Assembly: GCA_965206645.1 (NCBI GenBank)
Contig: CBDBKE010000004.1
Span: forward strand, 2,080,001-2,144,000
DNA length: 64,000 bases
Reading direction: 5' to 3'
Source: Terriglobia bacterium
Lineage (GTDB): Bacteria > Acidobacteriota > Terriglobia > JAJPHL01 > JAPKYU01
The translations under genes and the position numbers were made by a program. The notes under the pieces are model-generated. The model made no database searches and was not told the origin of the DNA. It worked only from the letters and a program-made list of their open reading frames with translations. This document shows positions 11,795 through 48,559 of the stretch, piece after piece (positions within the stretch are counted from its first letter, which is position 1; the number at the start of each line of letters is the position of its first letter).

Positions 11795-11940
11795 GGATAG
11801 GTCCCCACTAGCCTCCGACTGACACAGGCCAGACAGCACCAAGGAGGAACGGGGTTAGTTAGTTCCTCAGGAGTCGGCTAGAGTTTACCTATGGTGCCAC
11901 GCAGGCCACTTGGATGTATAACGCCCTAACCGGACAAGTG
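11795..11940 (+). repeat. Twin-34-bp-site element, copy A (first subsite split by an insert)
   Basis: ATAGGTCCCCACTA|~60 bp|GTCGGCTAGAGTTTACCTAT, then CACTTGGATGTATAACGCCCTAACCGGACAAGTG. Confidence 0.75.
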
Positions 11941-12180
11941 CCTAGATTCCCTTCGGGGAAGTATGACCTGGCGCACAAGGCCGATAATCTCCACAAACTG
12001 TGGCAGTACTCACCTATGTTCCAGCCGGGCAAGCTAAAAGACCCTACTACCATGATTACCTCCCGCTTTGCCGGCGGGCCGCAGCGTTCGGGATTCGATT
12101 CAGTGACTACACCGAGGCCGACTGAGCTTGCCGGAGAACTTGCACGGCACCTCCTTGACCAACCCGGACACGGTCCCGTA

Positions 12181-12690
12181 TCAGCCTCTAAAGCTCGGGA
12201 TCTGCGATCCACACTGCCGCGCGTGCACTACCTGCCCGTACACATCGGCGGGCACGGACGGCCCCTTGCGAGTGCAATGCTGACGGTAAGCCTTCTCAAG
12301 CTCTCCGGCGATCTCATCAGGCGTCATGCGCTCGATGTGCCGACGCTCCAGCGCGTAGACAAACGCGCCGTCCTTGAACAGGGCGACGGACGGCGACGAT
12401 GGCGCAACCTCCGGCATGCGCTCGCGCGCGCGTTGGGTCGCCTCCATATCGACCCCCGCAAAAACCGTGGTCAAGTGATCCGGGATGACAGCGGCCTGCA
12501 GCGCCTGGGTGACCCCGGGTCGGGCGCCTCCAGCCGCACAGCCGCAGATGGAGTTTACGACAATGAGCGTGGTTCCAGGCTTGCCAAGAGCCTCATCAAC
12601 ATCGGCAGCGGTCTTAAGCGGTGTGACGCCACATTGCGCCAGCTCCTCCCACATCGGCCGCACTGCTTCCGGATCATACAAAGGCTGCAT
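12181..12690 (-). CDS. BrxA/BrxB (YphP/YqiW) family bacilliredoxin-like disulfide oxidoreductase
   Basis: VVNSICGCAAGGARP, TVFAGVD.EAT..AR and PSSPSVALFKDG family motifs. Confidence 0.9.
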   Translation of the reverse strand: MQPLYDPEAVRPMWEELAQCGVTPLKTAADVDEALGKPGTTLIVVNSICGCAAGGARPGVTQALQAAVIPDHLTTVFAGVDMEATQRARERMPEVAPSSPSVALFKDGAFVYALERRHIERMTPDEIAGELEKAYRQHCTRKGPSVPADVYGQVVHARQCGSQIPSFRG

Positions 12691-13169
12691 ACGAAACTCC
12701 CTCCATTTTGGTTTCTGCACTCTCTCGGGCGCTCGGGCTAAAACAGCGTCGAGCCCACCGCCATCACAAGAACCTATTAAGTATAACTCTTCGGTCACCG
12801 TTAAGATACTGCATATCGGGCAACTGCGCGATCACGAGGCTCAATGGGCTTCCGGCAGCTCGGGAATGGTGACAAGAGAGGAAGGCCATATTAGTGCAGA
12901 TGCACGCCAAAGCATGACCATAACAACTGCTGCAAGGACCCAACTCCGGCGAAACGGTCCCGGTAGAACGCTGCTTTGGATCACGACAGGCCCCCTTTGC
13001 AAAGAGCCACTGCCCGCACTCGTTTCTCAACTGAGGCCAATATCCGTCTGCGCTCTCTCGCCGAGGATCCGATATCGATCAACAGGCCCAAGTCCGCCGA
13101 ACCGGGGCGCTCAGCGGCGGCGTGACGTGCCGTCCGCTGCAGCGCGTTGTTGGACGGCGTCGTCCCTCA

Positions 13170-13360
13170 CTCCACAACCCTTCCTGCTCTTGCCGGGCAA
13201 GGACTAGCTCCCTCGGAAGGTCACTGGATTTATGCCTATGTAAGGCCGAAGCTGATGTTCCGAAACGGCGGGCAACGCTCCGCAAAGCTGTCCCGTTAAC
13301 CAGGGCAACCTCGATCTCCCTTCTAGCGGGGTGTTTACAGATGCTGCATTCCCTCGCCAA
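13170..13360 (-). pseudogene. Phage-type CxxC-HTH protein fragment (terminase small subunit-like)
   Basis: CSICKHPARREIEVALVNG.ALRSVARRFGTSASALHRHK pattern; degenerates afterwards. Confidence 0.45.
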
Positions 13361-13707
13361 CTTTGGACCTCCTCGTTTTGAAAATCTCAAACAATCGTTC
13401 AGACCTGTCGTCTAGGGGGTTTGATGCGCCTATCGGCGGGAAGGCTTCCATCCTACCAACAGGTTATAGGGGATTACCCGATAGGAAAATCAGGTGGGCA
13501 CGATTGGTGGGAACGGCCAGCGGTGAGGGGCCAGAATTTTCCTCTGAACGCTTCTCCATCGAAGGTGCAGTTTCGTGAGTTTCTATGAGGAATTACGAGG
13601 CTAGTCATCGTCACCTGGGCATGCACAACCCGCCCCCCTGGCCATTCCGACGCTCCTCAGGGGGAGATCCGCCCGAGTTTGAGTGACTGCTTTCGGCCAG
13701 AAGCGGA

Positions 13708-13771
13708 CATTAACGATTGAGCTCAGCCGCCCCGAGCGAAGCGAGGGGTCGGCTGGAGCGACTTGTTGTGC
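13708..13771 (-). mobile_element. Integron attC site (solo cassette, no intI in window)
   Basis: Minus strand GCACAAC-AAGTCGCTCCAGCCGAC..GCGGCTGAGCTCAATC-GTTAATG; R''/L''/L'/R' layout, 16 bp after the VOC gene stop. Confidence 0.8.
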
Positions 13772-13787
13772 TGCCCATAGGATCATG

Positions 13788-14156
13788 TCAATTCGAACTT
13801 TTCTTGACGTTGTCCACGACGTCCTCCATTGACTTTTGCTTATCAATGGGTTTCGTAAAGACGAGACGATAGCCATCCAGGTCGAACACAGTGATCTCAC
13901 GCGCGTTCCACGGCTGGTTAACTGGCCCACTAGCGATGCTTCCGCCCTTGCCGGCAATCTTAGCCGCAAGATTGTCCACTGAGCCTTGCGTCATGGCAAA
14001 GGTCAGACTCACTCCAACGCCCTTCGCTTCTGAAGTTTGACTGATGTCAGAAACGAGAAGCACGTCAGCATACTTGGCCCATCGCAGATGAATGAGAACC
14101 GGCGCACCAGTCGGGCCGGGCATCTCAAAGACAAGCTGAAAACCCAGCACGTCTTG
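13788..14156 (-). CDS. VOC/glyoxalase family protein (cassette gene, 5' end probably damaged)
   Basis: QDVLGF..PVNQPWNAREITVFDLDGYRLVF; the first ~23 residues of the ORF-track call do not look like the family. Confidence 0.75.
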   Translation of the reverse strand, partial: QDVLGFQLVFEMPGPTGAPVLIHLRWAKYADVLLVSDISQTSEAKGVGVSLTFAMTQGSVDNLAAKIAGKGGSIASGPVNQPWNAREITVFDLDGYRLVFTKPIDKQKSMEDVVDNVKKSSN

Positions 14157-14683
14157 ATTAGGAATTACCACCATTAGTGTGCTTTTGCTCAGTATTACGG
14201 CGAAAGACTGTTGCTGGGATAGCAACGATCAATCGCTCAGCGCCTCTCTCAGCCGACGACCGGACCGGGGAAGGCCCAGGGCTCGGCCTGGGCGAGTACG
14301 TGGCGCACACGGCGAATCTAGCCCGCGCCGAATGGCGCATCCACGGCGCGCCGCACGTCCTCCGAGCTCCTAGCCGTTCTCCAGCATGTATGGTTCAAGC
14401 TTCAGCCATTTGATGGATTCTAAGCACTTAAATGGGAATCTTCATTCTCATCATCTGGCACTTCCACGAGAAAACTCTACCAGCAGCAAGATAGAAATAC
14501 CTACTCGGCTTGGACTGAAAGCTCTGCGGGAGAGACAGTTCTGCCGAGTCCGGTGCAACTCATGCTCTTTCAGAGACTTGCATTACCGGCCCCTCTAGCG
14601 GGACAAGTGGAGAGTTTAACATCCCGATTCTGGGCCAGGCCTTGCACGAGGCGTGCTTAAGGCCCGTCAGCATTTCTCGGCCG

Positions 14684-15286
14684 TCACTTGGCTTCCGCTG
14701 CCAACAGGTTCTCGAACGCCACCTGCAGCTTTTCGTGACTGCCGATAATCGTGCGGCCCCAGGTGATCATGTGGGAGGGCGCATCTTCCGCTGGGTCGGG
14801 CCACCTGGCGGGCCGGCCGTAGAGAAAGAAGGCGTCCCACTCGACGCGATCGGAGCCGGGACGAGTCACGTGGGAGGCGTACCAGCGGCCCGCGACTTTT
14901 TGCGCGTCCCAGAAGTGGGTCACCCGGGAGTCGGCGAGCCTGTCGGTGGGCCACTCCGAACGGGCATCGGTGGGAATCATGTTGAACCACACGGCATACA
15001 CCGCAACGTCCAGCTTGGGATTTTTCTCCAGGATCTTTTTCTGCACCCACCGGGTGCCGGCCGTGCAGACGGGTCACGTGGGAGAAAGCAGCAGCACAAT
15101 GCGGATCTTCCCCTCGTCGCGGTTGAAGGTGGCCTGAAGATCCTCGACCCGCGCCAGGGTGTTCAGCCGCGTATCCTCCGCGGCCCAGAGGTCGCGAACC
15201 GGCGGCAACGAAGACAGAAGAGAGATGGCAACCAGCACGAAGGTCCAGGGACGGCCGTGGCGCATGTTTCGGGCTTTGTTCATCAT
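14684..15286 (-). CDS. Putative secreted thioredoxin-like selenoprotein (SPT-U-PVC)
   Basis: In-frame TGA at 15074-15076 inside LLSPT*PVC; both flanking ORFs share a frame; SECIS-like hairpin at 15040-15069; RBS GGAGAG before ATG 15286. Confidence 0.75.
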
Positions 15287-15499
15287 GGTTCTCTCCATCT
15301 TGGTTCTCTGCAACGCGTCCGATGCACGGTAAGAGTCCCCTTATCCCCTCTTCCGGGTAGTTTCCCACCTATCCAGGCGGGTCAGGCCGCCTCCTCAACC
15401 ATGCTCCGCAACTTCGTGCCCTTGTACTTGCCCCAGCACGTGGGACATGGCCCGTACTTCTCAGCCTGGGGTGGCGGCGATTCCCGCTACGATGAATGA

Positions 15500-17159
15500 G
15501 CCGGAATTTCCATTTTGAGCTTCCCCTTCACCCGAAAACCTATGCCTCTTACCCTGTCGTGTCAATCGCAAATCGCCCGGGCCTCTTTGAGGTGGTAGTG
15601 CGGCACATTTTGGCTGTTCTTCGGAGTCGCTGTGCGGGTTTCGCCTGCCCAGCCTGCCTCGCCGCTGACACTTGTCCGGCCCGACCACTTCTGAGCACCT
15701 AAAATTACCCTCTCTCCTGGGTCGCTAGCCGTCTGGCAGCGGCAGTGCCGAGATCGTTCGCAGCATGCTGCTGAACAGCCTCCGGCTCAAGTGCCCTTCG
15801 GCCAGCAAAAGCCAGTAATATCGCGCATGTTTCACCAGCCGTCCTCCCGTTTTCACCAGCCGCTGCTGCAAACTCGTCAGCGACCAGTTGTTGATCCTCT
15901 TCGGTAGCACCAGCCGCCGCCACAGGTTTCCCAAGTTGTAGGCGATCAGGCTCAGCCATAGGCGCACCTCGTTCGACCGAAACCGATGGCAACTCAGCCG
16001 GGTCATCTTTACCGCCTGCTTGCCTTCCTTGATCCATTGCTCTGCGGTGCCCCGCTTGTTGTAGAACCGGACCACCGCCCGGCTGTCGGTCTCCAGATTG
16101 GTGACGATGAACCCCACGCGAGGGAACAGTTCGCCAAAGTGGAACTCCACCTTCGCCACCACCCGCCGCGCCTTTTTCCAACTGGCTGCCTGGTAGAGAA
16201 AGCTCTTGTGCCAGACCACCGGCTTGTGGCTCGGTCGCCCCACTGACCGCGTCAACAACTCCGCGATGTCCCTCTCCAGACTGTCGTTGGCCGGGATGCG
16301 AATCGCATACTTCACGTCCCGCTCCTCCAGTGCGTCGTAGATCTCCGGCTTGGCGAAGGCGGCGTCGGCGCGAAACACCACTTCCTTGCCCAGCTTCTGC
16401 TGCCGTTCGATCTCTGGCAGGAGAAGTTCTTCCCAATCCTCGGCGCTGTGCACGTTGCCGGGTCGCAGCTTGGCCGCCAGACAGTCACCCTCGCGACTGA
16501 ACAGCAACAACGGGTGATAGCAACTCGACTCGAAATGCCCGTTGTAGGCGCTCTGCTCCTGTTCGCCGTAGACCGGGATCTCGGTGCTGTCCATGTCCAG
16601 CACCACCCGGCGCGGCCCATCCATAGCTTCCGCCCTGGCGATCAAATCCCGGTTGATCGCTGCCAAACCAGCAAGGTTCTCGTCTTGCGTCAGCAGTTCT
16701 GTCTCGAACGACTGTAACCGGGAAGTCAGGGCTGCGCCACGTTCCCAGATCTTCTCCGAACCGATCAGCCGGAACGTCGGATCTTGGGAAAGCCGCTCGG
16801 CGTCGTTGACGTCTTCGTATCCTGCCAAGCGGCTGTAGATGGACTGCCGCAGCAAGTCAGCGAGGGGCAACCGGGTGTTCTTCCCCCGAGAGTCGATCAA
16901 GTGCTGTTCGATAAGTTCGCCGAACCCCAAACGTTCGTCCAACTCGCGCACCACAATCAGACCGCCGTCGGAAGTGATTCGCGATCCCTGAAATGTGACC
17001 CGCAGAAACCGGTTGAATGACAGTTGAAACGCCTGTTTTTGGCTCTCACCCATTCGGTGTACACCTCCGGAAGGCAATGTTGATGCTGGAACCCGCATCA
17101 ATACTGACGTTGGAGTCATTCAGAAGGTTGCCGCCGATAGTTCATAAAGGAAATCCGGG
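15500..17159 (-). mobile_element. IS1380-family element
   Basis: Ends CCCGGATTTCC / GGAAATTCCGGC enclosing one transposase gene. Confidence 0.85.
15725..17053 (-). CDS. IS1380-family transposase
   Basis: ITSDGGL, GYEDVNDAERL..DP, LDMDSTE, YNGHF..YHPL, FRADAAF, YNKRGTAEQWIKEGK. Confidence 0.95.
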   Translation of the reverse strand: MGESQKQAFQLSFNRFLRVTFQGSRITSDGGLIVVRELDERLGFGELIEQHLIDSRGKNTRLPLADLLRQSIYSRLAGYEDVNDAERLSQDPTFRLIGSEKIWERGAALTSRLQSFETELLTQDENLAGLAAINRDLIARAEAMDGPRRVVLDMDSTEIPVYGEQEQSAYNGHFESSCYHPLLLFSREGDCLAAKLRPGNVHSAEDWEELLLPEIERQQKLGKEVVFRADAAFAKPEIYDALEERDVKYAIRIPANDSLERDIAELLTRSVGRPSHKPVVWHKSFLYQAASWKKARRVVAKVEFHFGELFPRVGFIVTNLETDSRAVVRFYNKRGTAEQWIKEGKQAVKMTRLSCHRFRSNEVRLWLSLIAYNLGNLWRRLVLPKRINNWSLTSLQQRLVKTGGRLVKHARYYWLLLAEGHLSRRLFSSMLRTISALPLPDG

Positions 17160-17534
17160 TTGATACCAACGCGAGGAGACAGCCAAATCTCGAACGGCCA
17201 GCATTGGAAAGGACGGCATCGGATAGAACTCAATTTCCATACTCATAATGATTCCTTGTATTGGCACCGCACGCAAGCAGCACAACGGATAAAGTTTTAT
17301 CCAGCATGCCTCGATCTATAGGAAAATCAAAAACCGATTTCTGATGCGAATCGGGCGCAGTCGGCCAGCATCCGGTAGCGAAGTGCCCGCGCGCTATGAG
17401 GGGGGTGCCGCCGTCACTCGCGCCTTGAAGATTGTCCGTAGCGGCCCGGAAGAGCCGGCAGCCTTGAGCCGAAATTTCCGATTTGAGCTTTCCCTCGCCC
17501 GAAAGCATACACCCGCCGCCCTGTCGCGACTGTT

Positions 17535-17970
17535 GCGGTTCAGCAACGTGTCCCCAGTTTTGTAGAGGACGCCCACGCCGCCGCCACCCAGCTTCTCCAG
17601 AATGGGGTAGTGGCCGACCGTGTGGCCGATCATGGGAAGAACCCCCGTCTTGGCAGCAATCCTACGCCCCACCCGCAGGCAAGTCAACGTGCCAACCTCG
17701 ACCCGAACAGTCCCGCTGGTGATCACCCAGGACGGCGTCCCCAGCAACACCTTCACCCTCACCGTGCAATAGCGGCAGGGCCTACGAGATATGCAAGGTT
17801 GCATAAGTCTGACCCTCCCTCTAGGCAGAGTCGCCGATTAAGGGACGGCGGGAAGTTCATGCGCCGCAGCAGTTCCTGGAAGCGGGGGTCGGAGGCCAGA
17901 CGACAGATCACTTTTGTCCGGTGGGGACGAGGCGCTTCAGCTTCACGAACCAGTTGAGCCCGATGTTGAT
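17535..17970 (-). pseudogene. Three disjoint scraps of Ser/Thr protein kinase genes
   Basis: INIGLNWFVKLKRLVPTGQK* (17908-17970), LASDPRFQELLRRMNFPP (~17840-17900) and MIGHTVGHYPILEKLGGGGVGVLYK (17633-17535). Confidence 0.7.
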
Positions 17971-17985
17971 TTGCAAAGCTAGTAG

Positions 17986-19353
17986 CTACTTCGCAACTCG
18001 CAATAACAATAGTCGCCGTAGAAAGACCAGGTATGATACTACGGCGGTGAAGGCTAGGGCTGGCAGCACAAACCCACTCACCCCACCCAACATCGCCACG
18101 AACAGGCGGCCATCGCGATTGGGCAGAAGATAACGAGACCATGCGTCGTCGGCTTGACTGGTAAAGGAGCAACCGAAGGCGATTCGGTAGCGATCTTTGA
18201 ACGCCATCGACAGAGGGACACCCAACAGGGCAGCCGCAGTCACTAAGAGCGGGGCCCAGCCGGGCGAGAGCGTGTAACTGTAGTAGCCCATCGCCAACAC
18301 GATGAGCCCATCAGCGTAGCGGTCAAGCAAAGAATCCAAAAGGGTGCCAAAGGCCGACGTTCTTAGTTTCAGCCGAGCCAGTTCGCCGTCCACGCCGTCC
18401 ACAATCGACGCCAGTTGCACGGTCAGTCCGGCCCATAGCGGTTCTCGGACTGCAAACAGTACAGCTCCCGCCAGCGCCATGAGGAAAGAAGCAATGGTTA
18501 CCTGATTTGGCGTGACCGCAGTTCGTGAGAACCAAGCGGTGATGGGGCGCGAGAATTTCCGGTTAATGTGGCGAGCGACCAGGCCGTCGCCGGGGCTGGC
18601 CAGAGACGTAAGAAGTCTCTTCTTGGCATTCTGGTAGTCGGCCGGGGTGTCGATGTCCTGCCAGGACCCTTCCCTGAGGGGGACGTTGGCTAAGCCGTGC
18701 TGCTCGGCGAGACAGCGGCAGCCGCCTGTAAGAGAATTGTCTCCCGCAGCAAAAGACGTTTCCAGAGCCGAAAAGATGGCTGGGGTGAAGACAAACAGGC
18801 CACAGTCGACACCGTGGTCTCTTTCCAGCCCCTTGCCGATGGCGCAAACTTCACCGTCATCCGAAACGCGGACGTAGGTGGCGTCTTCCTTATCCACTTC
18901 GACGTTAGGGGAGAAATCCACCAGCATATGTGCGTGACCATTGTCGGGGACCCGGAGCAAGAAATCACGCAGCGTGTTCACCTCAAACAGATGGTCAGCC
19001 ATCAACACAAGGAAGCGGGCTTCATCGCTCACTGCCGCCTGGGCCCGCATCAAGGAGACCCCATTGCCCAACCTCCAGTCGGGAGTTGGCAGGCAGCGGA
19101 CATTGAGGCCGTCGCAATCCAGCTGCCCCACCGCCTCTTCAATCGCATCGCCCTGGCAGCCCACCACCAAGAGGACATCCAAGATGCCCACTTCCTTCAA
19201 GGCACGCAGGTTGCGGGCGAGCAGGGTGAGTCCCAACAGGTTCACCAGGCACTTCGGCTTTCCGTTCGTCACCTGGCGCAAGCGGTGTCCACCACCGGCG
19301 CCCAGCATCACAGCGGTGCGGATGCTAGTGCCCTGCTTTTCGGCTAGTTTCAT
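17986..19353 (-). CDS. Bifunctional NTP transferase / CDP-alcohol phosphotransferase (IPCT/DIPPS-like)
   Basis: N-terminal LGAGGGHRL..PKCL and WQDIDTP; C-terminal DGVDGELARLK..FG.LLDSLLDRYAD with TM helices. Confidence 0.85.
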   Translation of the reverse strand: MKLAEKQGTSIRTAVMLGAGGGHRLRQVTNGKPKCLVNLLGLTLLARNLRALKEVGILDVLLVVGCQGDAIEEAVGQLDCDGLNVRCLPTPDWRLGNGVSLMRAQAAVSDEARFLVLMADHLFEVNTLRDFLLRVPDNGHAHMLVDFSPNVEVDKEDATYVRVSDDGEVCAIGKGLERDHGVDCGLFVFTPAIFSALETSFAAGDNSLTGGCRCLAEQHGLANVPLREGSWQDIDTPADYQNAKKRLLTSLASPGDGLVARHINRKFSRPITAWFSRTAVTPNQVTIASFLMALAGAVLFAVREPLWAGLTVQLASIVDGVDGELARLKLRTSAFGTLLDSLLDRYADGLIVLAMGYYSYTLSPGWAPLLVTAAALLGVPLSMAFKDRYRIAFGCSFTSQADDAWSRYLLPNRDGRLFVAMLGGVSGFVLPALAFTAVVSYLVFLRRLLLLRVAK

Positions 19354-19791
19354 ACACAAAGATGAACCGCCCCGGCCGTAATTCAGCAAGTCGAGGTTGA
19401 AAGACAACACTGAACATCTTGATTCGCGTGTGTCATGGGGACTATAGGGGATGAGGGTGAGGGAGTGGGTCGAGAGGGGGCTATGGTGCGACTCTCTTCT
19501 CTCCGCAACAGATCGCGTCCTCCGACAGCAACGCCGACCCACCAATGGAGAGGAATTTCCAGGGGCTGCTCGGAATTCAAGTGGCGCGAACAACTGCGCC
19601 AACCTCGGTGGGAGGCGCGCGGCCCATCCTGGCCGCGGAGCAATTTTGTCATCAACTCAGGCGCTAACTCTACTTTCCGTATAGGGATGGCTGCAACGGG
19701 CGCAGCCCAACAGGCCGAACTTTACCTTACCTTGGCGAAACAGCGAGCAAGAATACCATCGCCTCGCGGCCGGTGTAAAGGAAAAGGTGAG

Positions 19792-19890
19792 TTAGCGGTT
19801 GATATCTCTGTGCACCACCTTGGTGCTGAGGCTGGCTTCCGACAGGCGCTTACGGATGGTTTCTGCCAGTGTCACCGAGCGGTGCTGCCC
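19792..19890 (-). pseudogene. C-terminal scrap of RNase adapter RapZ/YvcJ
   Basis: Manual translation GQHRSVTLAETIRKRL..VVHRDINR*. Confidence 0.7.
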
Positions 19891-20054
19891 GGCGTGCCCC
19901 CGAGCGTAGCTTGCGGAACATGGCGGGAAGCTGCCCCAAGGCTCCTCGCTCCCGGATGTCCATCACTAGGGCCGCTTAGTCAAGAGGATGGAGTTCGGCC
20001 TAGGATAAATTCAGGTGGATTTATAGGGAAGTGGGTGTCGTACCGACTTGTCGG

Positions 20055-21299: not shown

Positions 21300-21393
21300 T
21301 GTCCTGTGGACAGTCTAACAGCACGGCAGCTTGGGGGACTGATGCCCTCCACCGGCGGCTAGCGCTCCGGCTGGCAAATTTTCGCTGCTCCGC

Positions 21394-21481
21394 CAGTTTC
21401 TGGTAATCCGACTATACGCCCATGTGAAACCGGGATTGGTAAACACTAGCCCGTTAGTAAGGACCTATCCGGCATCGCTGG
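21394..21481 (-). repeat. Twin-34-bp-site element, copy E
   Basis: Minus strand ATAGGTCCTTACTAACGGGCTAGTGTTTACCAAT-N8-CACATGGGCGTATAGTCGGATTACCAGAAACTGG. Confidence 0.75.
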
Positions 21482-21536
21482 ACATGCAACCCCTCCGGTT
21501 GTAGTCTTGGGCAATCGTTTCCGAGGGGGAACAGCC

Positions 21537-21830
21537 ATGCGCAGGCCCTTGATTCGTCAAATAGGACCGGGAATGGCGCTGCTAGCGCTCGGGCTGCTCG
21601 CTAGCGACGTGGTGGAGGTGGGTTCCGGCCCTGTCCTTGCCGACAAGCCATACTCCGTAGCGAAAGCTCCAGAGGCCGACAAGCTGCAGGTGGTGGAGAG
21701 TTTCGGAAAACTGCCTCTTTATTTCATTGAGAACCAGGAGCAGCTCGCCCCTCGCGTCGCCTACTACATCCATGGTGGCGACAAGAGCAATCTACTTCAC
21801 TGGCCGCGGTGTCACATTCGCGCCAACGGC
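21537..21830 (+). pseudogene. N-terminal fragment of a secreted SBBP/beta-propeller-type surface protein
   Basis: Signal peptide then FGKLPLYFIENQ..RVAYYI.GGDK; frameshift to IYFTGRGVTF, then truncated. Confidence 0.6.
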
Positions 21831-22056
21831 CTTGCTGTGGGAGAGGGGTTGGCCGCCAAGGCCAAGAAACAATCGGGGCGCGATTAGAAGTACCCCGGAT
21901 GCAGGGACGCTCAAGCTTACGGCTGGAAGTTCAGGCGGCGCAGCAAGGTCTTGGAAGCGGGCGTCGGAACGCAGTTGGTTCCAGAGTCAGCTCATCCTTC
22001 TTTCCGGCTTGCTTCCCGCGGCCCAGGCGGGTGTTCTTAACGTGGACTCGCAGATT

Positions 22057-29547: not shown

Positions 29548-29905
29548 CGGGTCGTCTCCCTTCGCCCCGCCCGTAAGCAACCCACCAAAGCCCAGGGGTA
29601 TAGCGCAGGAACAAGACTGGCGAGAAAAGCCGGTAGTGGGCTACCTTGATTCCCGTGGGAGCTGTCGTGGTCGTAGCGGCGGCCTTTAGGCCGCCATGGT
29701 TTTGGCAGGCCGAAGCCTGCCGCTACGCCAACAACCCGTGGCAGGCTAAAAGCGTCCAAAAGGGTCAAAACAGCCCACTACCCCCAAGCCTCAGTACTTC
29801 ACGGCTGAGTGCCTCGTCAGAGCCACCAGAACGCACCTGGCGCGCCCCAGCCGCGTTGTCACGACTAGCTTAGACTCATCTGGTGATTATGATGGGAGAA
29901 AGCAA

Positions 29906-34588: not shown

Positions 34589-34780
34589 GTTAAACCTCCT
34601 GTTCGTGGTCACCATTTTCCACGGTTAAATGATCGGGTGTAACTTGGTGGGTACGCAGCTCCCGGAGCCGACCCGTACCGCATTCTAGCAGAACCTGACG
34701 CGATCCAAGAGGACCAGGACTAAGAGGGTGGGCTTCGGCGTGTACGCTCTGAAACGAAAGAATTCGCTTCGCATTTGACA

Positions 34781-34815
34781 GATAAGTCCCCACTAGTCGG
34801 TTAGCGTTTACTTAT
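34781..34815 (+). repeat. Twin-site element, copy F (first subsite only)
   Basis: ATAAGTCCCCACTAGTCGGTTAGCGTTTACTTAT. Confidence 0.7.
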
Positions 34816-37402: not shown

Positions 37403-37410
37403 CGAATGCC

Positions 37411-41013: not shown

Positions 41014-41748
41014 GTTGCTCGCTTCCTCCCGTGCATACGCCTGTAACTGCCTGCAACTTCAAAGACTTCCGTTCCATTCGGCGAAATGCGCCCGGAATCT
41101 TGTTCGGACCGGCTGATCCGCATAATTCCCCGCATCTCCCTCAGCTCTCCATTGAAGGATCCTGCCCCATCTGGTCAGGAGGGCTTTGAACCCCTCGTCT
41201 ACCACGGATCAACACGTGTGTATAGTCCCTCGTGATCTTAACGTCCTTGTGCCTCAGCAGCTCGTGCAGTGGCCAAGGCACCGTCTATCCTCCTCCTCCC
41301 CACTTCGCGAGTCAAGGGGCCCGCGCCGTTCTCCGCTCCTTGGCTGTCGCCGAGATACCGCCTTGTTCTTGCACTGCCCGTTTTCTCTCCAAAACCTTCA
41401 CGCAGGTTCGCCCGTATCTGTGAGGCGGAAGTGGGCTACGAAGTCACGAAGAGCTAATGATGGGGAAGCCCTCGGCGTGGCAATTCCTCCCAGAGCCCCG
41501 ATGGTTTCCGGTTTGTCGGCGGCCCAGACAAAGGAGCAATCACCGTTCCCCTACCAGCAGAGGTAAAGGGGCGTGACGCAGTTCTCCGGCCCGATAGTAT
41601 TCCTCTCTCCCAGGGGTCTGGCGAGCAGGGTGGGAAAGTACCCCTGATGGGACTCAAGGAGGGGCTTACGACTGTTCCGTGTGGACGTTCGTGTGGACAG
41701 AGGGAGTGTTAGGCCAACTGTCGAATTGCTAAGCAAAAGAAAGGAATT

Positions 41749-41800
41749 GTGGACCTGGCCGGGTTCGAACCGGCGAATCGGCGACCTCCTGACTGCCAGT
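41749..41800 (-). mobile_element. att site: degenerate 3' half of tRNA-Ala(GGC)
   Basis: Minus strand ACTGGCAGTCAGGAGGTCGCCGA-TTCGCCGGTTCGAACCCGGCCAGGTCCAC, with an ~8-nt internal duplication. Confidence 0.7.
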
Positions 41801-42408
41801 TCACTTGGCTCATGAATACGGACTGCTACCGAGTGTGCTGGAGGGCCTGTCTGTTGCGGGTTTCCTGCGACACCGCAAACTTCGTGACGCTCCGTAGCAG
41901 TCCGTAATCTGTCGTATTCCAGCGCCGCTCAGAGCCCCCAGAGAGAAGAACTGTGCTGGAAGGGCTCAGTTGGAGGCCAATGGGCGTATTTACTCACGAG
42001 TCCCGGAGGGCCAAAAAACTAATTCCGGATATAACCGAACAAGACACCGGAGCAGGCAAAGCGAGCCATGATGTCACCCAAAGGAGGCCATGGCGATCTG
42101 AACTGGATCGACAGACCGGCTTGCAAATGTTTGGGGGAGAGGGAAAGTCAAATCGGAAACTCTCGCTTCGGGAGGCGCTACGGGATGGGGAAACTCAACT
42201 TCACTGACATCAGCCCTGAGGTGGCGCGGCGCATCGTGGTGTTCCTCAATTGCGCGAAGAACGCCGGAGACATCGCGGGATTCGAGCCGGCAGCTAGGAA
42301 TTGTTCAGCATTCTATAGGGAAGTACAAGAGGGGAGCTTACCTCAGTGCCGAGGATATTCAAATCGATTTGAACGGGGCGTACAAATCGAGTCTCTAGAT
42401 CAAGCCGA

Positions 42409-44098
42409 TTATTCTTTCAAGTGATGCCGGGCGTCTACCGGGCGAACGCATGCATTGGCGAGGAGGGCCACAACGAGTAAGCCGGCCATCAGAAACATCG
42501 TCGAGTTATAGAGTGTGCTCGAAGGGTCCAAGGTTCCCGGTGCAGCAATTTCCATCAATTTCGCGATGGTCACGGTTTTTTGAGCCACCAGCTCATCGAG
42601 TTATTCCAGAGGCGCGCCGGATTTTGCCGCAAAGGCGGCCGGATCCACCGAGCGCGCGAGTTTTTCCAGGGCGCGGTCGAGAGCCGTTTCCCGCAGGGAC
42701 GTGATGGCCAGCGGGCCCAACACCCCGGCGGTGCTCCAGGCGGTAAGCAGTCGCCCGTGAATCCCTCCCACGAACCGAGCGCCGAACAAGTCGGCTAGAT
42801 AGGCGGGAACCGTGGCAAATCCTCCTCCGTACATCGTAAAGATGAGCAGAGTGGATCCGTAGAAAAAGACCAGCCAGACGGCGGACGGGGAGACGGCGGC
42901 CTGCCGGGCCGTATAAGGGATGGATAGATAAAGAAGCGTTCCCAGCACAAAGAAGATGGTGTAGGTGGTCTTGCGTCCGAGATAGTCCGATACGCTGGCC
43001 CAGAAAAACCGCCCCCCCATGTTGAAGACGCTGATCATCAGAACACTAGGTTGCGGCAAAAGTGCCGTCCACGATTCCCGGCGAGGTGGTGCCGAAGATT
43101 TCCGTCATCATCGTCTTGGCCACGCCCAAGACCCCGATGCCCGCCGTTACGTTGAAGCAGAGGACAATCCAGAGCAGGTAGAATTGGGGTGTTTTCAAAG
43201 CTTGGTCGATCCCCACGTCATTCCGGCTGATCATTTTCCGCGCTGCATCCCGTTCCTCGGGAGGCCTCCATCCTTCCGGTTTCCATCCCGGCGCAGGAAT
43301 ACGATAGGAAAAAGAGGCCAGCAACATGACAGCGAGATAAATCGCACCCAGGGCCAGAAAGGTTGCCGCTACACCCGTCGTTCCCGTACCAACAAGGCAG
43401 ACTCCCTCCGGGCCGGGCATCAACATTTGGGAGACATCATTCGCTCCGACGACCACCACTTCCCGTAATTCGCCGGCCAGGGAAGCAAACCGCTTTCCTC
43501 CTTCCGTCACCAGGGAAACCTCCTCCACGCGCCCCAGAAAATCCGGACTGCGGTAGAAGAGTCGGATCAGAAATTCCTTTAGCGGGGCCCCGATCATTGC
43601 GCCCCCGCCGAATCCCATGATGGCCATGCCGGCCGCCATCCCGCGCCGGTCGGGAAACCAGCGAATGAGCGTGCTGACGGGCGAAACGTAGCCCAGCCCC
43701 AGGCCGCATCCTCCCAGGACTCCGTAGCCGAGATAAAGGAGCCAGAGCTGATGAAGCTGGATGCCTGCGCCTCCGAGCATGAATCCCCCGCCCCAGCAGA
43801 TTGCCGCCACCGTTCCCACCAAGCGGGGTCCCACCTTCTCCAGCCATTTCCCCGCAAAAGCGGCTGCGAGACCCAGAAATACGATCGCCACCGTGAAGAC
43901 CCAGACCACCTGCTTGAGCGTCCAGTTCCCCGCGGCGCTTACGACCACCCCCTGGACTTTCACCAGCGCAGGGTTGAAAATGCTCCAGGCATAGACGGAA
44001 CCGATGCAGAGATGGATTGCCACCGAAGCAGGCGGAACCTTCCAACGATTGAAGCCGGATGGTGCAATAATCCGTTCTTTCGAAAAAATATCCGCCAT
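42409..44098 (-). pseudogene. OFA-family MFS transporter with a 1-bp insertion (~43046) and a nonsense codon (42601-42603)
   Basis: IHLCIGSVYAWS, GLGYVSPVSTLIRWFPDRRGMA.G, YGGGFAT.PAYLADLFG; frame continues past the TAA to RHHLKE* at 42409. Confidence 0.85.
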
Positions 44099-44471
44099 GA
44101 TCCCAGATTATGAAACCGGAAATCTGCCCTTCAAATTTCACGAAGCAGGCGATTATACACGGGACACCTGCGCCTCCGGCTGCCGTGCTTTCTTGAGTCG
44201 GTTCTTTTGAATTCTGCTGCGAAAGGGTCTAACAGGGTGCTGAAAAACGCAGCAAAAATAAAAGTGCTTCGTTCTGGAGAAGCTGTGCGAGTCGTTTCCA
44301 GGGGCGTTCATGGGCCTTTGGGGCCTTGCTCGGATCCCCGATTCGCCTGGGGCCCATGTCCACCTCGCCGGGGAACGGCAATGCCGGATAGCCGTCCGGC
44401 CTTGAGAATCGGAGTATCATTGCCCCCAAGGGGAGAATCGGCCGCCCTGCCGTTTGCCGTAGGAGTCCTAG

Positions 44472-45176
44472 ATGACGAAAGCCAAAACCGGCTGGCTGCT
44501 GCTGGGAATCTTGTGTCTGGCCTCCTTTGCCGTGGCCCAAGCCGCGGCCTGGGCGAAGTACATAAAGGCAGGCACAGAAGCCTACCAGCGGGGCCAGTAC
44601 TCCGGGGCTGAGAAACAATTCGTGGCTGCCCTCAAGGAGGCTGAAAAGTTTAGAGAGCAGGACCCTCGGCTAGCCACCAGCCTCAACAACCTAGCGGAGC
44701 TTTACCGCGCCCAGGGTAAGTCCGCTGAGGCCGAGCCGCTCTACCGGCGGGCGCTGGCGATCGTGGAGAAAGCCCTGGGTCCGGAGCATCCGAATATGGC
44801 CACCAGCCTCAACAACCTGGCGTTGCTCTACGACGCCCGGGGGAAGTACGCCGAGGCCGAGCGGTTTTACAAACGCTCGCTGGCAATCCGAGAGAAGGCC
44901 CTGGGACCGCAACATCCTCACGTTGCCCAAAGCCTCAACAACCTAGCGTCGCTCTACCAAGCCCAGGCCAAGTACGCCGAGGCCGTGCCGCTCTACCAGT
45001 GGGCGCTGGTGGTTTGGGAGAAAGCCCTGGGGCCAGAGCATCCCAGCGTGGTCACGGCCCTAGAGAATTATGCTGAGCTTCTACGGAAGACGAACCGGAA
45101 GGCCGAGGCCGCCAAACTGGAGGCCCGCGCCCAGGCCATTCGCGCCAAGCACGCTGGAAAGAACCCACCGAAGTGA
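44472..45176 (+). CDS. Secreted TPR-repeat protein
   Basis: Signal peptide; repeated ATSLNNLA.LY..QGKYAEAE.LY.RALAI.EKALGP.HP units. Confidence 0.9.
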   Translation: MTKAKTGWLLLGILCLASFAVAQAAAWAKYIKAGTEAYQRGQYSGAEKQFVAALKEAEKFREQDPRLATSLNNLAELYRAQGKSAEAEPLYRRALAIVEKALGPEHPNMATSLNNLALLYDARGKYAEAERFYKRSLAIREKALGPQHPHVAQSLNNLASLYQAQAKYAEAVPLYQWALVVWEKALGPEHPSVVTALENYAELLRKTNRKAEAAKLEARAQAIRAKHAGKNPPK

Positions 45177-45191
45177 CCTACCTCGTGGTCA

Positions 45192-45265
45192 CCAGCAATG
45201 CCGAACAGGTCCCCACAAACGGGCTAGTGTTTACCTATGTTCCAGCCTGGATGGTCCACGTGTGT
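45192..45265 (+). repeat. Twin-site element, copy D (second subsite truncated)
   Basis: CCAGCAATGCCGA-ACAGGTCCCCACAAACGGGCTAGTGTTTACCTAT..CACGTGTGTG, 15 bp after the TPR gene stop. Confidence 0.75.
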
Positions 45266-45904
45266 GTGCCTCGGGGCTGGAAAATCTTCGGTGTTGAGCG
45301 CCCTGGAGGACTGTAGCGATCCCCCGAGCGCAAGATTAGAGGGGGGTATCTAAAGTGGGCTAAGTACACGGCGCGTAGCCTCCAAGGACAGGGACGACGT
45401 TAGCGTTGCTGCCTATGGTGGTGCGAAGCGCCTGGCCCGACGATCTCGTTGGCGCCGATCGCCTCTCTGGCGCCGGTCAACGAATATGGGTTGCTGTTCC
45501 CGGCGACGGTCTCGGCGCCGGCGCCGCTGGAAGTTGCGCTCGTCCAGCAAGTTCCTTTCCCTTTCGCTCAGGTTAGGAATCCGTCGTGGAAGTAGTGTCG
45601 TTGTACGCCGCGAAACGGTCAAGCAGAGTCATGGACTTGGTTACATCCAAGACAATTCTTGAGCTCAGTGCTCGAAGCAAGCGAATGCTGAATCTGCTGC
45701 TTCAAGACCGATCCTTTCAGAGATTGCCGGAAGCGGGCGAACGACCGCAGTGAAGGAGTAAGGAGCCCGTAGATGGGCACATCTGCCGAGGCGTGAGCGC
45801 GTAGTTCGCCTGTAATATTGGGAACGCCCCCAATCGCCCAGAATCGCCCGCTAGGGCGCCTGACAGGGCTGGACTACCCCGCCGGACTGACAACCGGAAT
45901 TGCA

Positions 45905-46056
45905 GGCGATCGGATCGAGTTACGTGGCTTTGGGGTCTCCAACGTAAAGCCGCGCAAACAGGCATCGACCGCAATCCCCGCACCGGCAACGTCGTCAACA
46001 TCCCTCCAGGCAAGTCTGTTCGTTTCAAGCCGGGCAAGGAGCTGCAGAGTCTCTAG
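45905..46056 (+). pseudogene. C-terminal half of an HU/IHF family gene, frameshifted
   Basis: GDRIELRGFGV..KPRK / TGIDRNPRTG..VNIPPGKSVRFKPGKELQSL*. Confidence 0.8.
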
Positions 46057-46160
46057 TCCTGTTCTTGCGCACCGTCCCCCACCGGCCCCAAAGAATTGAA
46101 CACCCCAGGCACGGCATGAGCGATCATCCCCTGACTTTATCGTGGGCCTTGAGAACCGGC

Positions 46161-46382
46161 TCACTTGACCAGTTGCATCGTCTCTGACGCGGCCGGCACC
46201 TTAACTTGCAAACCTGCGATTAGCTCCAGAGTGGCTTTGTTGACTGTTTCAGCTTCCTGTAGTCGTTGCTCCATGCGGTTGAACTCGACTCGAAGCTTGC
46301 GATTGCTTTCGTAAGTGGCCATTGTGAAGAACGTCAGAATCAGGATCGCTAGCGCAAAGATGACTCGCTCTGAAGTGCGCAT
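46161..46382 (-). CDS. Small single-TM coiled-coil hypothetical protein
   Basis: AAAGGAGG RBS, N-terminal TM, heptad-like tail. Confidence 0.55.
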   Translation of the reverse strand: MRTSERVIFALAILILTFFTMATYESNRKLRVEFNRMEQRLQEAETVNKATLELIAGLQVKVPAASETMQLVK

Positions 46383-46769
46383 CTTGGGCGTGACCTCCTT
46401 TCCGCTTTGGTTGTATTGGTGAGCAGGTCATGCGAAACTGCCGCCGTGGGACTTGTCACGTGTCAACCGAAATGCCCGATTGGAGGCTAGAAGCATACGC
46501 CGTCCCCCCTCTTGTTGCAAGCTCAGCACCATGGCCTCTCCTGGGTGGTATCGCGGACTAACGGTTGGGCTTATTAGGAAGGAAGCGGGAGTCCCACCTG
46601 AAAGCACCCTAGGTAACCCCCCTGGTGTGAGGTGCTGCCCAGGTCCGGACCCCTTTGTGCTGCGCCAAGCGTGAAACGCTGCTATTATGGCAGGTAGCCC
46701 CACCTCGAAAATGTGGGACCATGCCCGATAAGCCCAAATACGAGAGAGCAGCTAAAGGGAAGCGAACGC

Positions 46770-47070
46770 GCCCAGTGGCCTTCATCCTGGTCGTCGGACG
46801 GCCAAACCCTGGCCTTTCTTGAAGTCCATCCCAACACGGGCGCTGACATCTCGGTTCTTCCGTTGCAGGGCGAGCGCAAGCCGCGCCCATTCCTCCAAAC
46901 CCAATTTAATGAAGTCCTGGCGGTGTTCTCCCCGGACGGTCAGTGGCTAACGTATCTCTCCGATGAGTCCGGACGGTTTGAAGTCTACGTACGGCCGTTT
47001 CCCGGCCCCGGCGGCAAGTGGCAGATCTCCACCCAAGGCGGCCATCGGCCGTTCTGGGCGAAGAACGGTT
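46770..47070 (+). pseudogene. PD40/TolB-like beta-propeller scrap of a Ser/Thr kinase
   Basis: PSSWSSDG..FSPDGQWLTYLSDESGRFEVYVRPFPGPGGKWQIST.GG. Confidence 0.8.
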
Positions 47071-47211
47071 TCCTAGTACCAAGACCGGTTTCACGGCTCC
47101 AGGCTGCGATGTAAACTCTCACGACGTGTGGTACAAAAAGTCGGTCTGGTCACCAGAGTTTTCCGGAATGGAAAGGTTTACTTCCAAACAGCGGATTGAG
47201 GGAGGCTACCC

Positions 47212-47697
47212 ATGCCGTGGAAAGTTTCATTCGTTGAGGGAATCGACGGTGTAATTCGTTGGGCGGTTCGGGCTTTGGCTCTCCTGATGACCTTTGTGGT
47301 GATCATGGGTGTCGTGGAAGTTGTGTGGGAACTATACGACCGCCTCCGTCAGCCACCCATTATGAAGCTGGGGATTACGGAACTCGAGGCTACGTTCGGC
47401 ACGTTCATGGCGGTTCTGGTGGCAATCGCAATCCTCGCAAATATCACCTTACGTCTGCGAGAAGGCGTCGTCCGCGCCGAGGTGGTGATGGGCACGGCGC
47501 TCATTGCCACGGCACGAACAGTTATCATTCTCGACCTGAGAGAGTATTCGGCGCCGCAAGTGTGGGGAGTTGCGGTGCTGGTTCTGGCGACGGCTATCGG
47601 ATACTGGCTGGTGCGCGGAGGTAGTCCGAAGAGTGCCCTCCTCTCTCGGGAAAGCGCGGACGTTCCGAGCGGTCGAAGTCCGGCGGAGAAAAATTAG
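47212..47697 (+). CDS. Phosphate-starvation-inducible PsiE family membrane protein
   Basis: Four TM helices, FG.FMAVL.AI..NIT..L, TALIA.AR.VIILD. Confidence 0.8.
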   Translation: MPWKVSFVEGIDGVIRWAVRALALLMTFVVIMGVVEVVWELYDRLRQPPIMKLGITELEATFGTFMAVLVAIAILANITLRLREGVVRAEVVMGTALIATARTVIILDLREYSAPQVWGVAVLVLATAIGYWLVRGGSPKSALLSRESADVPSGRSPAEKN

Positions 47698-48079
47698 TCA
47701 CATCTTCTCTCATGCTCTTTGGAAATGAATGTCATGTAGGGCGCCGTGCTCAGGGCGGGAGGAGATCAAGAAAAACGTCGTACCTGTAGGAGAGCAGGTT
47801 ATAAAGCTCGATACAAAATGACCCGCAGCCACTCTATGAGACACACGAAGTTGAGCGAGTTGGATTGTTGCGTGCCGACTACGACTCGCTTATCGCCGAA
47901 ATCGAGCAACTCACCAAAACGACAATCAGTGCCACTTCGGGCAAGTTGAGATGGTAAAGCGAGCCATCTTGCCTGGGCCAGAGAACAAGCGGCTGCGGGA
48001 GGTGCTGGGCAATTATTGGAAGCCTGCCTTCGGGCAGATGCGGCTGAAGACTTGGCCGAAGAGGTGGACGGCTCACTGC

Positions 48080-48236
48080 TAGATGCAGCTCGCGCCACGC
48101 TGGACCGGCTCTCGCTCCAGAGCCGCGTGATAGATCTCCTCGACCTTTTGCCAACGTTCGGGCGTCATCCCGCTACACCCCTGCCACCACCCAACTTCTC
48201 CAGGATGCGGTATCGCCCGAGCGGCCGGCCGACCAT
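48080..48236 (-). pseudogene. Scraps of Ser/Thr kinase N-termini
   Basis: MVGRPLGRYRILEKLGGG and VEEIYHAALEREP. Confidence 0.6.
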
Positions 48237-48367
48237 GAGCAAGAAGCCTCCCTCTTGGGGGCCAAGCTACGCCCCGGCCACAGGCAAGTCAAGGCGAATG
48301 GCCTACTCCGGGAAGGGGTTGCTGACGGCAGTATCTCGCTCTAAAGCGGGTTCCCTCAATCTTCTTT

Positions 48368-48450
48368 GATAGCTTCCCACTAGTCGGTTCGTGTTTACCC
48401 ATGCTGCCACACCGCCACTTGGATGTATAACGCGCTTATCGGAAACTGAC
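48368..48450 (+). repeat. Twin-34-bp-site element, copy B
   Basis: ATAGCTTCCCACTAGTCGGTTCGTGTTTACCCAT-N13-CACTTGGATGTATAACGCGCTTATCGGAAACTGA. Confidence 0.8.
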
Positions 48451-48476
48451 CCACTACCCTGGCGGGCCTAGAGGGT

Positions 48477-48559
48477 CACTTGTCCGGTAAGCCGACTATG
48501 CGGCCAAGTGGAACTTGGTCGGTAAACGCTAGCCCGTTTGTGGGGACCTGGCATTGCTG
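48477..48559 (-). repeat. Twin-34-bp-site element, copy C (inverted, adjacent to B)
   Basis: Minus strand CCAGGTCCCCACAAACGGGCTAGCGTTTACCGAC-N7-CACTTGGCCGCATAGTCGGCTTACCGGACAAGTG. Confidence 0.8.

Follow-up and report, generated by a model that had tools for sequence, protein, structure and literature searches.

The 64,000-nucleotide stretch of a Terriglobia bacterium genome analysed here (hereafter the window) carries six dispersed copies, designated A to F, of a repeat composed of two 34-bp dyad-symmetric sub-sites, S1 and S2, and thereby raises the question of what these repeats are and how unrelated genes came to lie between them. In the original prediction, S1 and S2 were regarded as paired crossover sites with swapped 6-bp centres, belonging to an undescribed cassette-shuffling system. 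From the analysis described below, we conclude that the repeats are probably the ends, left and right, of non-autonomous IS1-family DDE transposons, namely MITEs (miniature inverted-repeat transposable elements) or mobile insertion cassettes (MICs). Window positions refer to the whole 64,000-nt stretch, coordinates prefixed with C1 to C4 refer to the 4.4-Mb genome (G000), and G001 to G003 are its congeners.

The sequences lying immediately outside S2 delimit the repeats. Past S2, most copies enter GACCCACTACC, which, when read inward, gives GGTAGTGGGTCAGTTT(CC), a 16-18 bp inverted repeat (IR). This terminal IR was found with at most 3 mismatches in 16 positions in 42 of the 68 S2-bearing copies, and the variant GACCCTCTACG was read from the sequences of 7 more. 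The copies were recurrently arranged as F2(-) ... 0.7-3 kb ... F1(+) with their terminal repeats pointing outward, where F2 (left) and F1 (right) denote two sub-families of the repeat with sub-terminal regions of approximately 115-145 bp. The 8-bp flanks of all 18 adjacent inward-facing IR pairs were then compared, and identity was observed at 8/8 positions in 4 pairs, 7/8 in 6, 6/8 in 1, and 5/8 or fewer in 7. Random pairings of non-partner ends reached 7/8 or better in only 86 of 5000 cases (1.7%), as against 10 of the 18 real pairs. Six of these ten good pairs were F2...F1 cassettes (C1:52447-54040, C2:192568-195447, C2:777120-778525, C3:194357-197663, C3:758129-761272, and C4:758246-766860), and three were elements of the same kind, namely a transposase-bearing 3449-bp element, a 2076-bp insertion sequence (IS), and the 144-bp MITE of the latter. 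The outer IR boundaries together with the 8-bp target duplications are the signature of a DDE transposase. From the outside in, a unit is composed of the 8-bp target duplication, the IR GGTAGTGGGTCAGTTT(CC), S2, a linker, S1, an inner flank, 0.6-8 kb of cargo, and the mirror-image end.

Whole units, comprising the left end, the cargo, and the right end, were furthermore found to be missing from orthologous sites in the congeners, with the break located exactly at the outer repeat. The cassette C2:192568-195447, encoding a 672-aa protein of unknown function, was absent in G003, in which the flanks are contiguous and the duplicated 8-9 bp are present once; the printed junctions of the filled site read ...GCGCTCGG|AGTAGTAGGTCAG...CTGACCTACCACC|GCGCGCGG... 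The kinase-TPR cassette C3:758129-761272 was absent in G001, where a base-level comparison revealed CAACCC once in the empty site, the filled site being flanked by CAACCCAA and CAACCCGA. By coordinates only, this cassette was absent in G003 as well, and a related kinase gene was found at another locus of G003, 89% identical over one part of the match and 70% identical over the other. The third cassette, C2:777120-778525, displayed an 8/8 duplication (AAAGCGAG) and was likewise absent in G003 as judged from coordinates only, its cargo being located elsewhere in that genome. At this same site, G001 was shown to possess the same duplication and full F2 and F1 ends around a different interior (1.9 kb vs 1.3 kb), and at the C2:192568 site G002 has kept the left junction with other content. 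The copies thus do bracket unrelated genes, as had been predicted, and the absence of the units at orthologous sites indicated that the bracketed genes move as cassettes. The cargo included kinase-TPR, DUF7948-SBBP, Soli_cterm, cupin, alpha/beta hydrolase, and HbpS+TIG proteins, in addition to proteins of unknown function, and the only transposases inside the cassettes were those of multi-copy passenger IS elements (IS1380-like, IS256-like, and IS21-like).

We infer that the cassettes are mobilised in trans by an IS1-family transposase of G000. An intact candidate was found in the 3449-bp element C4:1596644-1600092, which has the IRs GGTAGTGTCTCAGTTT, flanks matching at 7/8 positions, and a 347-aa DDE protein encoded beside one end. 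This protein matched PF03400 (DDE_Tnp_IS1) with a score of 35.3 bits against a cut-off of 24.1, and its best NCBIfam match was NF033558 (IS1). In the 4646-bp element C2:14856-19501, the first 16 nt of the IRs are the same as those of the cassette IR; next to one end it encodes a homologous transposase, likewise matching PF03400, that is split by an IS1380-like insertion. The transposase-bearing elements of 2076, 3449, and 4646 bp each contain a single open reading frame (ORF) of approximately 277-347 aa. All 8000 scored database homologues of the transposase had E values of 1e-10 or lower and were mostly about 277 aa long, and many of the best 120 were named IS1 family transposase; among solved structures, no sequence match to the transposase was found. 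According to the IS1 entry of ISfinder as it appears in Table 8 of PMC10425158, IS1 elements have GGnnnTG ends and direct repeats of 8-9 bp, and the ends are likewise given as GGnnnTG in the Discussion of PMC6807381. The terminus GGTAGTG shared by the cassettes and the transposase-bearing elements, combined with the 8-bp duplications, agrees with these hallmarks. Furthermore, in the metagenome-assembled genome of an unrelated member of Acidobacteriota, the IR GGTAGTGTCTCAGTTT has directly inside it an IS1-family gene with 66% identity and a single in-frame TGA. The profile matches were found to be ends of IS/MITE elements, the outcome named at the outset as refuting the original prediction, and their termini match those of IS1-family elements of the same genome. 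In the proposed mechanism, the enzyme would be supplied by IS1-family elements that lie at other places in the genome and have the same termini; it would bind at the terminal repeats, make the cuts, and insert the unit into a target cleaved with an 8-bp stagger.

Several observations weigh against this interpretation. The NF033558 score of the candidate transposase (73 bits) was below the model cut-off of 100, and the IR of its intact element differs from the cassette IR at 2 of 16 positions. The element with the matching IR, C2:14856-19501, is disrupted and has flanks agreeing at only 2/8 positions, and the search revealed no intact transposase whose element bears exactly the cassette IR. With the same transposase query, G001 and G003 gave only distant transposases (49-60% identity) without a matching IR nearby, and no cognate autonomous element was found in G001-G003. 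The duplication was absent in 7 of the 18 IR pairs, and one of the good pairs, C2:436250-441258, does not constitute independent evidence because it sits between two doublets of abutting ends with a common spacer. Approximately 19 of the 68 S2-bearing copies lack the IR and run into other conserved modules, continuing either as CAAGTGCC and a GC hairpin followed by S1, or as CAAGTGCC and a 28-34 bp spacer followed by an inverted S2; S1X-spacer-S1Y pairs with a conserved CCATCCAGGCAGAAC spacer also exist without S2 or the IR. Of the copies in the window, B and C alone have a clear terminal IR, and D, E, and F have none. The four full doublets aligned have an almost invariant 8-bp spacer, unlike the outcome of independent insertions. 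Finally, neither excision nor new insertion was detected among the assembled (Logan) contigs of public runs: no contig bridged the empty site of C2:777120-778525, and the joints found, namely those with sides of 22-28 nt and one from right end to left end with 9 letters between, were those expected from other repeat copies and doublets, and speak neither for nor against excision or circles.

The doublets were inspected on their own. Exactly 8 bp separate the IR of copy B, the last position of which is 48458, from the variant IR of copy C, which starts at 48467. When four full doublets were aligned, their spacers were nearly identical (CTGGCGGG, CTAGCGGG, and CAGGCGGG) and their outer boundaries were fuzzy. 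These two features give the doublets the appearance of a right end of one unit placed beside the left end of another, an arrangement copied or homogenised after a single origin. It might have arisen by insertion next to an existing end, or through homologous ends by which a circle junction became integrated. The possibility that the doublets are discrete mobile units was not supported, given the fuzzy outer boundaries in this alignment; the short S2-IR-8bp-IR-S2 units have sharp inner edges, yet they continue into other shared modules. A public contig, CAVPEZ010000022.1, shows at 76766-76985 the 20-nt terminus with a second IS1-type terminus, GGTAGTGCCTCAGTTTGA, starting right after it; here an element has inserted directly against the end of another, an event that may bear on the origin of abutting ends.

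To return to the repeat itself, an nhmmer profile built from copies B, C, and E gave 111 matches in the genome at E values of 10 or lower, 36 of them full length, and separate F1 and F2 profiles gave 76 and 68 matches, respectively, which merged to 109 non-overlapping places and established that the family is large. These places cluster in a few regions, including an island that fills positions 1-52.6 kb of the window and adjoins a tRNA at 52542-52615 and, at 51715-52464, a phage-type integrase. Alignment of the flanks resolved the copies into the two sub-families, F1 with A, B, and F and F2 with C, D, and E, and the swapped centres noticed at the outset were thereby demonstrated to be real. 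In F1, a small covarying hairpin and TCAGATTCGG precede S1 with the centre GTCGGY, and the linker ATGCTGCCACGCAGCC leads to S2 with the centre ACGC(C/G)C; in F2, CCTTGTCACCAGCAATGCC precedes S1 with the centre ACGGGC, and the linker CCCGGTTTCAG leads to S2 with the centre GTCGGC. The claim that only two types of centre occur survived the genome-wide sample. Among 81 S1 pattern matches, 28 had ACGGGC, 21 GTCGGT, and 8 GTCGGC, the remainder being one-off variants or opposite-strand readings. The 96 S2 pattern matches, which include chance matches at 7 mismatches, comprised 28 GTCGGC, 15 ACGCCC, 9 ACGCGC, and 11 GCCGAC (the same sites on the other strand). Since the left end F2 and the right end F1 carry opposite centres, the swapped cores amount to the difference between left and right ends. 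In the profile matches of G000, S1 and S2 were also found singly and in other pairings. No Rfam family was detected at gathering thresholds over the window, and in the B-C region at E values up to 10 only a chance-level Mg riboswitch match appeared (15.7 bits vs 40).

As summarized in Table 1, all six copies were present in the window where the original prediction had placed them, and the profile scans somewhat extended their spans because the conserved flanks belong to the unit. An S1 16-mer gave 5 matches at 3 or fewer mismatches, where 0.63 were expected, and an S2 18-mer gave 2 exact matches, where 0.02 were expected; chance is therefore excluded for the repeats. The predicted 34-bp geometry, ATAGGT-N22-ACCTAT for S1 and CACTTG-N22-CAAGTG for S2, holds for the consensus, from which single copies vary: the S1 arms of copy B are ATAGCT..ACCCAT, and many S2 sites finish in AAACTG. 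The compensated arm of copy F, ATAAGT..ACTTAT, was confirmed, and such compensation recurs, for example as ACAAGT..ACTTGT at C3:310412.

Table 1. Repeat copies and associated features in the window (positions within the 64,000-nt stretch)
Feature	Position	Strand	Description
Copy A	11751..11949	+	F1-type (right-end) module: inner hairpin flank, S1 centre GTCGGC, S2 (11907-11940) centre ACGCCC
Insertion, 63-64 bp	11811..11874	+	Within the centre of copy A S1 (CACTAG^TCGG)
Degenerate S1-like unit (GATAATCTCCAC...CACCTAT)	11983..12051	+	Recognised by eye only; profile E value 0.52, unconfirmed
Copy E	21391..21491	-	F2-type (left-end) module: S1 centre ACGGGC, S2 centre GTCGGA; terminal IR degenerate or absent
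Copy F	34744..34815	+	F1-type inner flank and S1 (centre GTCGGT) only; without S2 and without IR
Copy D	45182..45242	+	F2-type flank and S1 (centre ACGGGC) only
Copy B	48324..48459	+	Complete F1-type right end: inner flank, S1 (GTCGGT), linker, S2 (ACGCGC), terminal IR
Spacer CTGGCGGG, 8 bp	48459..48466	.	Separates the abutting terminal IRs of B and C; length equals that of the target duplication
Copy C	48467..48574	-	Complete F2-type left end: variant IR, S2 (GTCGGC), linker, S1 (ACGGGC), inner flank CAGCAATGCC

The surroundings of the individual copies were diverse. Directly past its S2, copy A has no terminal IR and runs on as CAAGTGCC plus a GC hairpin; by eye, an IR-like terminus, GACCCTACTACC, lies at about 12040-12051, some 100 bp further on and after the degenerate S1-like unit. 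Copy E is located upstream of the start of a truncated DUF7948-like gene (21507-21887, + strand), and copy F is followed by CCTTAATCAGGCAGGAAC repeats resembling the spacer of S1-S1 pairs, which assigns it to the S1X-spacer-S1Y type. Copy D lies directly 3' of a TPR gene fragment (44472-45176), and the same arrangement of fragment plus S1 was found at C4:3454-4942 and C1:265268. The terminal IR of copy B (GGTAGTGGGTCAGTTT on the - strand) occupies 48443-48458, and the variant IR of copy C, CCTAGAGGGTCACTTG, occupies 48467-48482 on the + strand. The insertion within copy A belongs to a mini-element of 57-64 bp with an internal GAGGAAC/GTTCCTC stem, which always lies between CTAG and TCGG, that is, in the S1X centre or a remnant of it. 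Beyond the window, three distinct loci were found (C2:468323-468389, C2:100684-100751, and C3:902023-902072, the last of which is duplicated as C3:194446-194495), and blastn revealed no parent element; its position in the S1 centre could reflect targeted insertion or a single event that was later copied. Beside copy C, a segment of 1.49 kb with sharp ends (48724-50215), containing an MFS gene (48996-50231, - strand), was found to be 99% identical in G001 (C2:222688-224180) and G002 (C234:6567-7944). The DNA around it is approximately 85-90% identical or unrelated, and the adjacent repeat ends are 88% identical. It seems that a discrete segment has recently been transferred, and in both genomes it lies next to F-type ends.

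The repeat family was detected in all three congeners, with at least 20 repeat-query matches each in G001 and G003, and weaker, shorter matches were found in 6 of 37 more distant relatives, making 10 of 41 genomes including G000. The exact 20-nt terminus was found in at least 116 public contigs, mostly of Acidobacteriota; among 80 listed, 4 bore other phylum names. At these 80 loci, the next 15-25 nt mostly resembled ...TTAGCGCGTTA... or ...TAAGCCGACTA..., and the full S2 pattern was present in 7 and S1 in 2. In G008, which belongs to the same order and a different family, an 824-bp element was found with IR-S2 ends, one end per centre type, and flanks matching at 7/8 positions. The two types of centre therefore look like an old left/right difference of an extended IS terminus, and S1 with its long flanks looks like a lineage-specific elaboration.

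Alternative explanations of the repeats were weighed against the transposon-end interpretation. The conserved ends might serve mainly as expression signals, F2 as a promoter or operator and F1 as a terminator or stabiliser, and have spread by duplication and homologous recombination instead of active transposition. Consistent with this, 7 of the 10 cassettes with an assignable ORF (crude ORF calls) have their cargo running from F2 to F1, a small covarying hairpin forms the inner flank of F1 after stop codons, some F2 copies lie upstream of conserved gene starts, and the cargo can be swapped inside fixed ends. The orientation bias of 7/10 is, however, not significant, and the terminal IR, the 8-bp duplications, and the clean empty sites are left unexplained. 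We thus regard expression signalling as an unlikely main explanation, although it would be compatible with the transposon-end interpretation as an added function. A rule relating the orientation of the copies to neighbouring genes, derived from crude longest-ORF calls, was also tried and abandoned as too noisy.

Within the transposon-end interpretation, the S1/S2 dyads with their two 6-bp centres might constitute a second, integron-like layer that exchanges cargo inside fixed transposon ends. The points fitting this proposal are the different cargo at the same site and duplication (G000 vs G001, and G000 vs G002), the contrast in identity between the MFS segment and its surroundings, three breaks at S2 centres, the conservation of the left/right asymmetry in another family, and the common doublet spacer. 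Homologous recombination among the approximately 100 similar ends could explain most of these observations, and we consider such a layer improbable.

S1 and S2 might alternatively be palindromes of the repetitive extragenic palindromic (REP) or bacterial interspersed mosaic element (BIME) type spread by an HUH tyrosine transposase (RAYT), the IS1-type ends being secondary. GTAG-tagged REPs and RAYT-like genes flanked by terminal inverted repeats are described in Acidobacteria in PMC3733652. In the present genome, the modules form mosaics, being found alone, as inverted pairs, and as tandem arrangements with spacers of 24-30 bp, a GTAG tetranucleotide occurs in the terminus 5 nt from the S2 foot, and two Y1_Tnp genes are present. 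These RAYT-like genes, C4:710078-710383 and C4:115872-116072 (open frames of about 205 aa), have inverted repeats of the types CGTCAGGGCACGGCTTCAGCCGTGCC (26 nt, arms 100% complementary) and CCGAGCCGCGAGCGTGAGCGAGCGGT, respectively. Both are nevertheless flanked by repeats of their own, unrelated to S1 and S2 (GGCACGGCTTCAGCCGTGCC and CCGAGCCGCGAGCGTGAGCGAGCGGT), with no S1/S2 match near, and three of the four sub-sites are weak hairpins as single-stranded DNA. Moreover, the units carry 8-bp duplications and terminal inverted repeats, neither of which is made by HUH transposition (IS200/IS605). A RAYT origin of S1 and S2 therefore appears quite unlikely.

According to the original prediction, a tyrosine recombinase (Xer/Cre/IntI-like) would use S1 and S2 as paired crossover sites, exchange within the 6-bp centres serving to excise, integrate, and shuffle cassettes. 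The 14-6-14 geometry with only two dominant centre types is real, the same site holds different cargo inside the same ends, and a few truncated ends do break at the centre (GCCGA|G at C2:777120, GCCGA|T in the G002 variant of C2:192568, and C4:428150). The S1 outer arm is compensated as well, pair 4-31 comprising 37 G-C and 4 A-T, a value reached by 15 of 1000 shuffles. The boundaries of the units nevertheless lie at the outer IR with its duplications, as seen base by base at C3:758129 and in the printed junctions of C2:192568, and conservative site-specific recombination does not produce 8-bp duplications. Breaks were not enriched inside the cores: 125 distinct copies, taken from G000 and from the loci retrieved for G001-G003, gave 101 truncated boundaries, of which 10 fell at the centre +/-1, where about 12% would be expected if they were uniform, and most lay at module edges (for instance, the first base of S2 is the starting point of 11 in F1 and of 6 in F2). 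Nor were the copies associated with tyrosine recombinase genes: of 33 PF00589 genes, 1 had a copy within 2 kb (2.2 at random) and 4 had one within 5 kb (4.3 at random). In addition, the S1 and S2 centres differ within one unit, and no hybrid S1/S2 sites were noticed. What stands of the proposed cassette-shuffling system is that genes move as cassettes and that one site can hold different cargo; the tyrosine-recombinase mechanism at the 6-bp cores falls away and is, in our judgement, highly unlikely.

With regard to the function of S1 and S2 as parts of transposon ends, single-stranded folding was examined. Three of the four single sub-sites folded no better than shuffled sequences (z = 0.06, 1.25, and -0.18), the S2 of copy C alone being stable as a single strand (-7.3 kcal/mol, z = -2.8), and the whole doublet folds as a long hairpin (z = -2.0), as any inverted pair would. 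The compensation in the S1 outer arm offers modest evidence that its symmetry has been kept, and fits a dimeric protein site as well as a stem; the inner part of the terminal repeat is shared with the outer arm of S2. S1 and S2 are predicted to be most likely duplex protein-binding sites with dyad symmetry, a role as hairpins or as crossover sites being unlikely. They could bind the DNA-binding domain of the transposase or a host factor, marking the identity of the end or helping transpososome assembly.

Comparison with known systems indicated the closest relationship. There is a DDE transposase matching PF03400 and, below the cut-off, NF033558, and, as in the IS1 family, the termini are GGnnnTG and the target duplication is 8 bp. 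The cassettes studied here differ in having no transposase and in possessing ends of 115-145 bp with two dyad modules, and the associated autonomous elements are 2.1-4.6 kb long with a single ORF of 277-347 aa and passenger genes, whereas classical IS1 elements are 740-1180 bp long with two frames joined by a frameshift. IS1 also includes a long single-ORF subgroup. In the Background of PMC6542083, ISs, MICs, transposons, and MITEs are described as dependent on an active transposase, and MIC231 of Bacillus cereus is credited to Chen et al. (1999). Like MICs and MITEs, the present units have IS-type terminal IRs and target duplications without a transposase of their own, would need one in trans, and show insertion polymorphism with boundaries at the termini, as evidenced by the empty sites of three cassettes; like MICs, they carry unrelated passenger genes. 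They are distinct in being IS1-like, while MIC231 goes with IS231 of the IS4 family, in their much longer, modular sub-terminal regions, in the exchanged 6-bp centres that tell left from right, and in the frequency of IR-8 bp-IR doublets. The REP/BIME sequences of E. coli and REPINs are similar in being imperfect palindromes of about 34 bp, of few types, assembled as mosaics with set linkers, commonly in inverted pairs, and mostly intergenic; they are set apart by the separate repeats of the RAYT-like genes, the terminal IRs and 8-bp duplications, and the weak hairpins seen here. With pdif modules and integron attC sites, the repeats share the bracketing of diverse genes by conserved sites and a dyad geometry centred on 6 bp, and, as judged by eye, one of the arms (GTTTCCGATAA) resembles that of XerC; no arm is XerD-like, the boundaries lie at outer IRs with duplications, there is no associated tyrosine recombinase, no search having been aimed at an integron integrase, and the rules of orientation and spacing are different. 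The repeats are hence best filed as an IS1-family-associated MITE/MIC family with unusually long modular ends. In a limited collection of literature on MICs, the IS1 family, MITEs, and Acidobacteria insertion sequences, we found no published description of this element, and PMC10017437 offered nothing of use on the ends of IS1.

Other mobile elements and neighbouring features were also observed. A second, related IS1-type family with the termini GGTAGTGGGCTAC was found at three places: the IS C4:1910685-1912760 (2076 bp) has an 8/8 duplication, GCCCGCCT, the MITE C3:862537-862680 (144 bp) has an 8/8 duplication, CAGAATCA, and the window copy 29632-29782 (151 bp) has flanks agreeing at only 5/8 positions. 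The window further contains an IS1380-like IS (PF13701) at 15499-17161 (transposase 15725-17119, - strand), with more than 20 near-identical copies and many relatives of 77-85% identity genome-wide. One of its copies is the insertion that splits the IS1-family transposase at C2:14856-19501. This element was rejected as a mobiliser of the cassettes, since it has ends of its own, is about 1661 bp long, and is present as a multi-copy IS at dozens of sites, and the IS256-like transposase inside C4:428150-430435 was rejected in the same capacity, its identical copies elsewhere revealing it as a passenger. Beside a cassette, the stretches C4:68021-68467 (447 bp) and C4:68674-68934 (about 260 bp) occur at no fewer than 15 and 6 places in G003, respectively, at 85-99% identity, and are probably other MITEs or IS fragments. 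At the left end of the island, three adjacent genes (window 440-4085, - strand) with DUF3732, ABC-3C middle component 3 (MC3), and ABC-3C CTD7 domains represent a candidate ABC-three-component (ABC-3C) conflict system.

These results strike a candidate new recombination system off the list. A conspicuous repeat family of these Acidobacteriota genomes, from a phylum whose mobile elements are little described, is probably explained as the ends of transposase-less mobile cassettes. In this genome, the cargo between the ends includes a kinase, secreted repeat proteins, an alpha/beta hydrolase, and several unknown proteins. Species of one genus differ in which cassettes they have, where these lie, and what they contain, and the family thus contributes to the mosaicism of the islands and to gene flux, while the 20-nt terminus together with the F1 and F2 profiles provides a direct way to delimit such cassettes in annotation.

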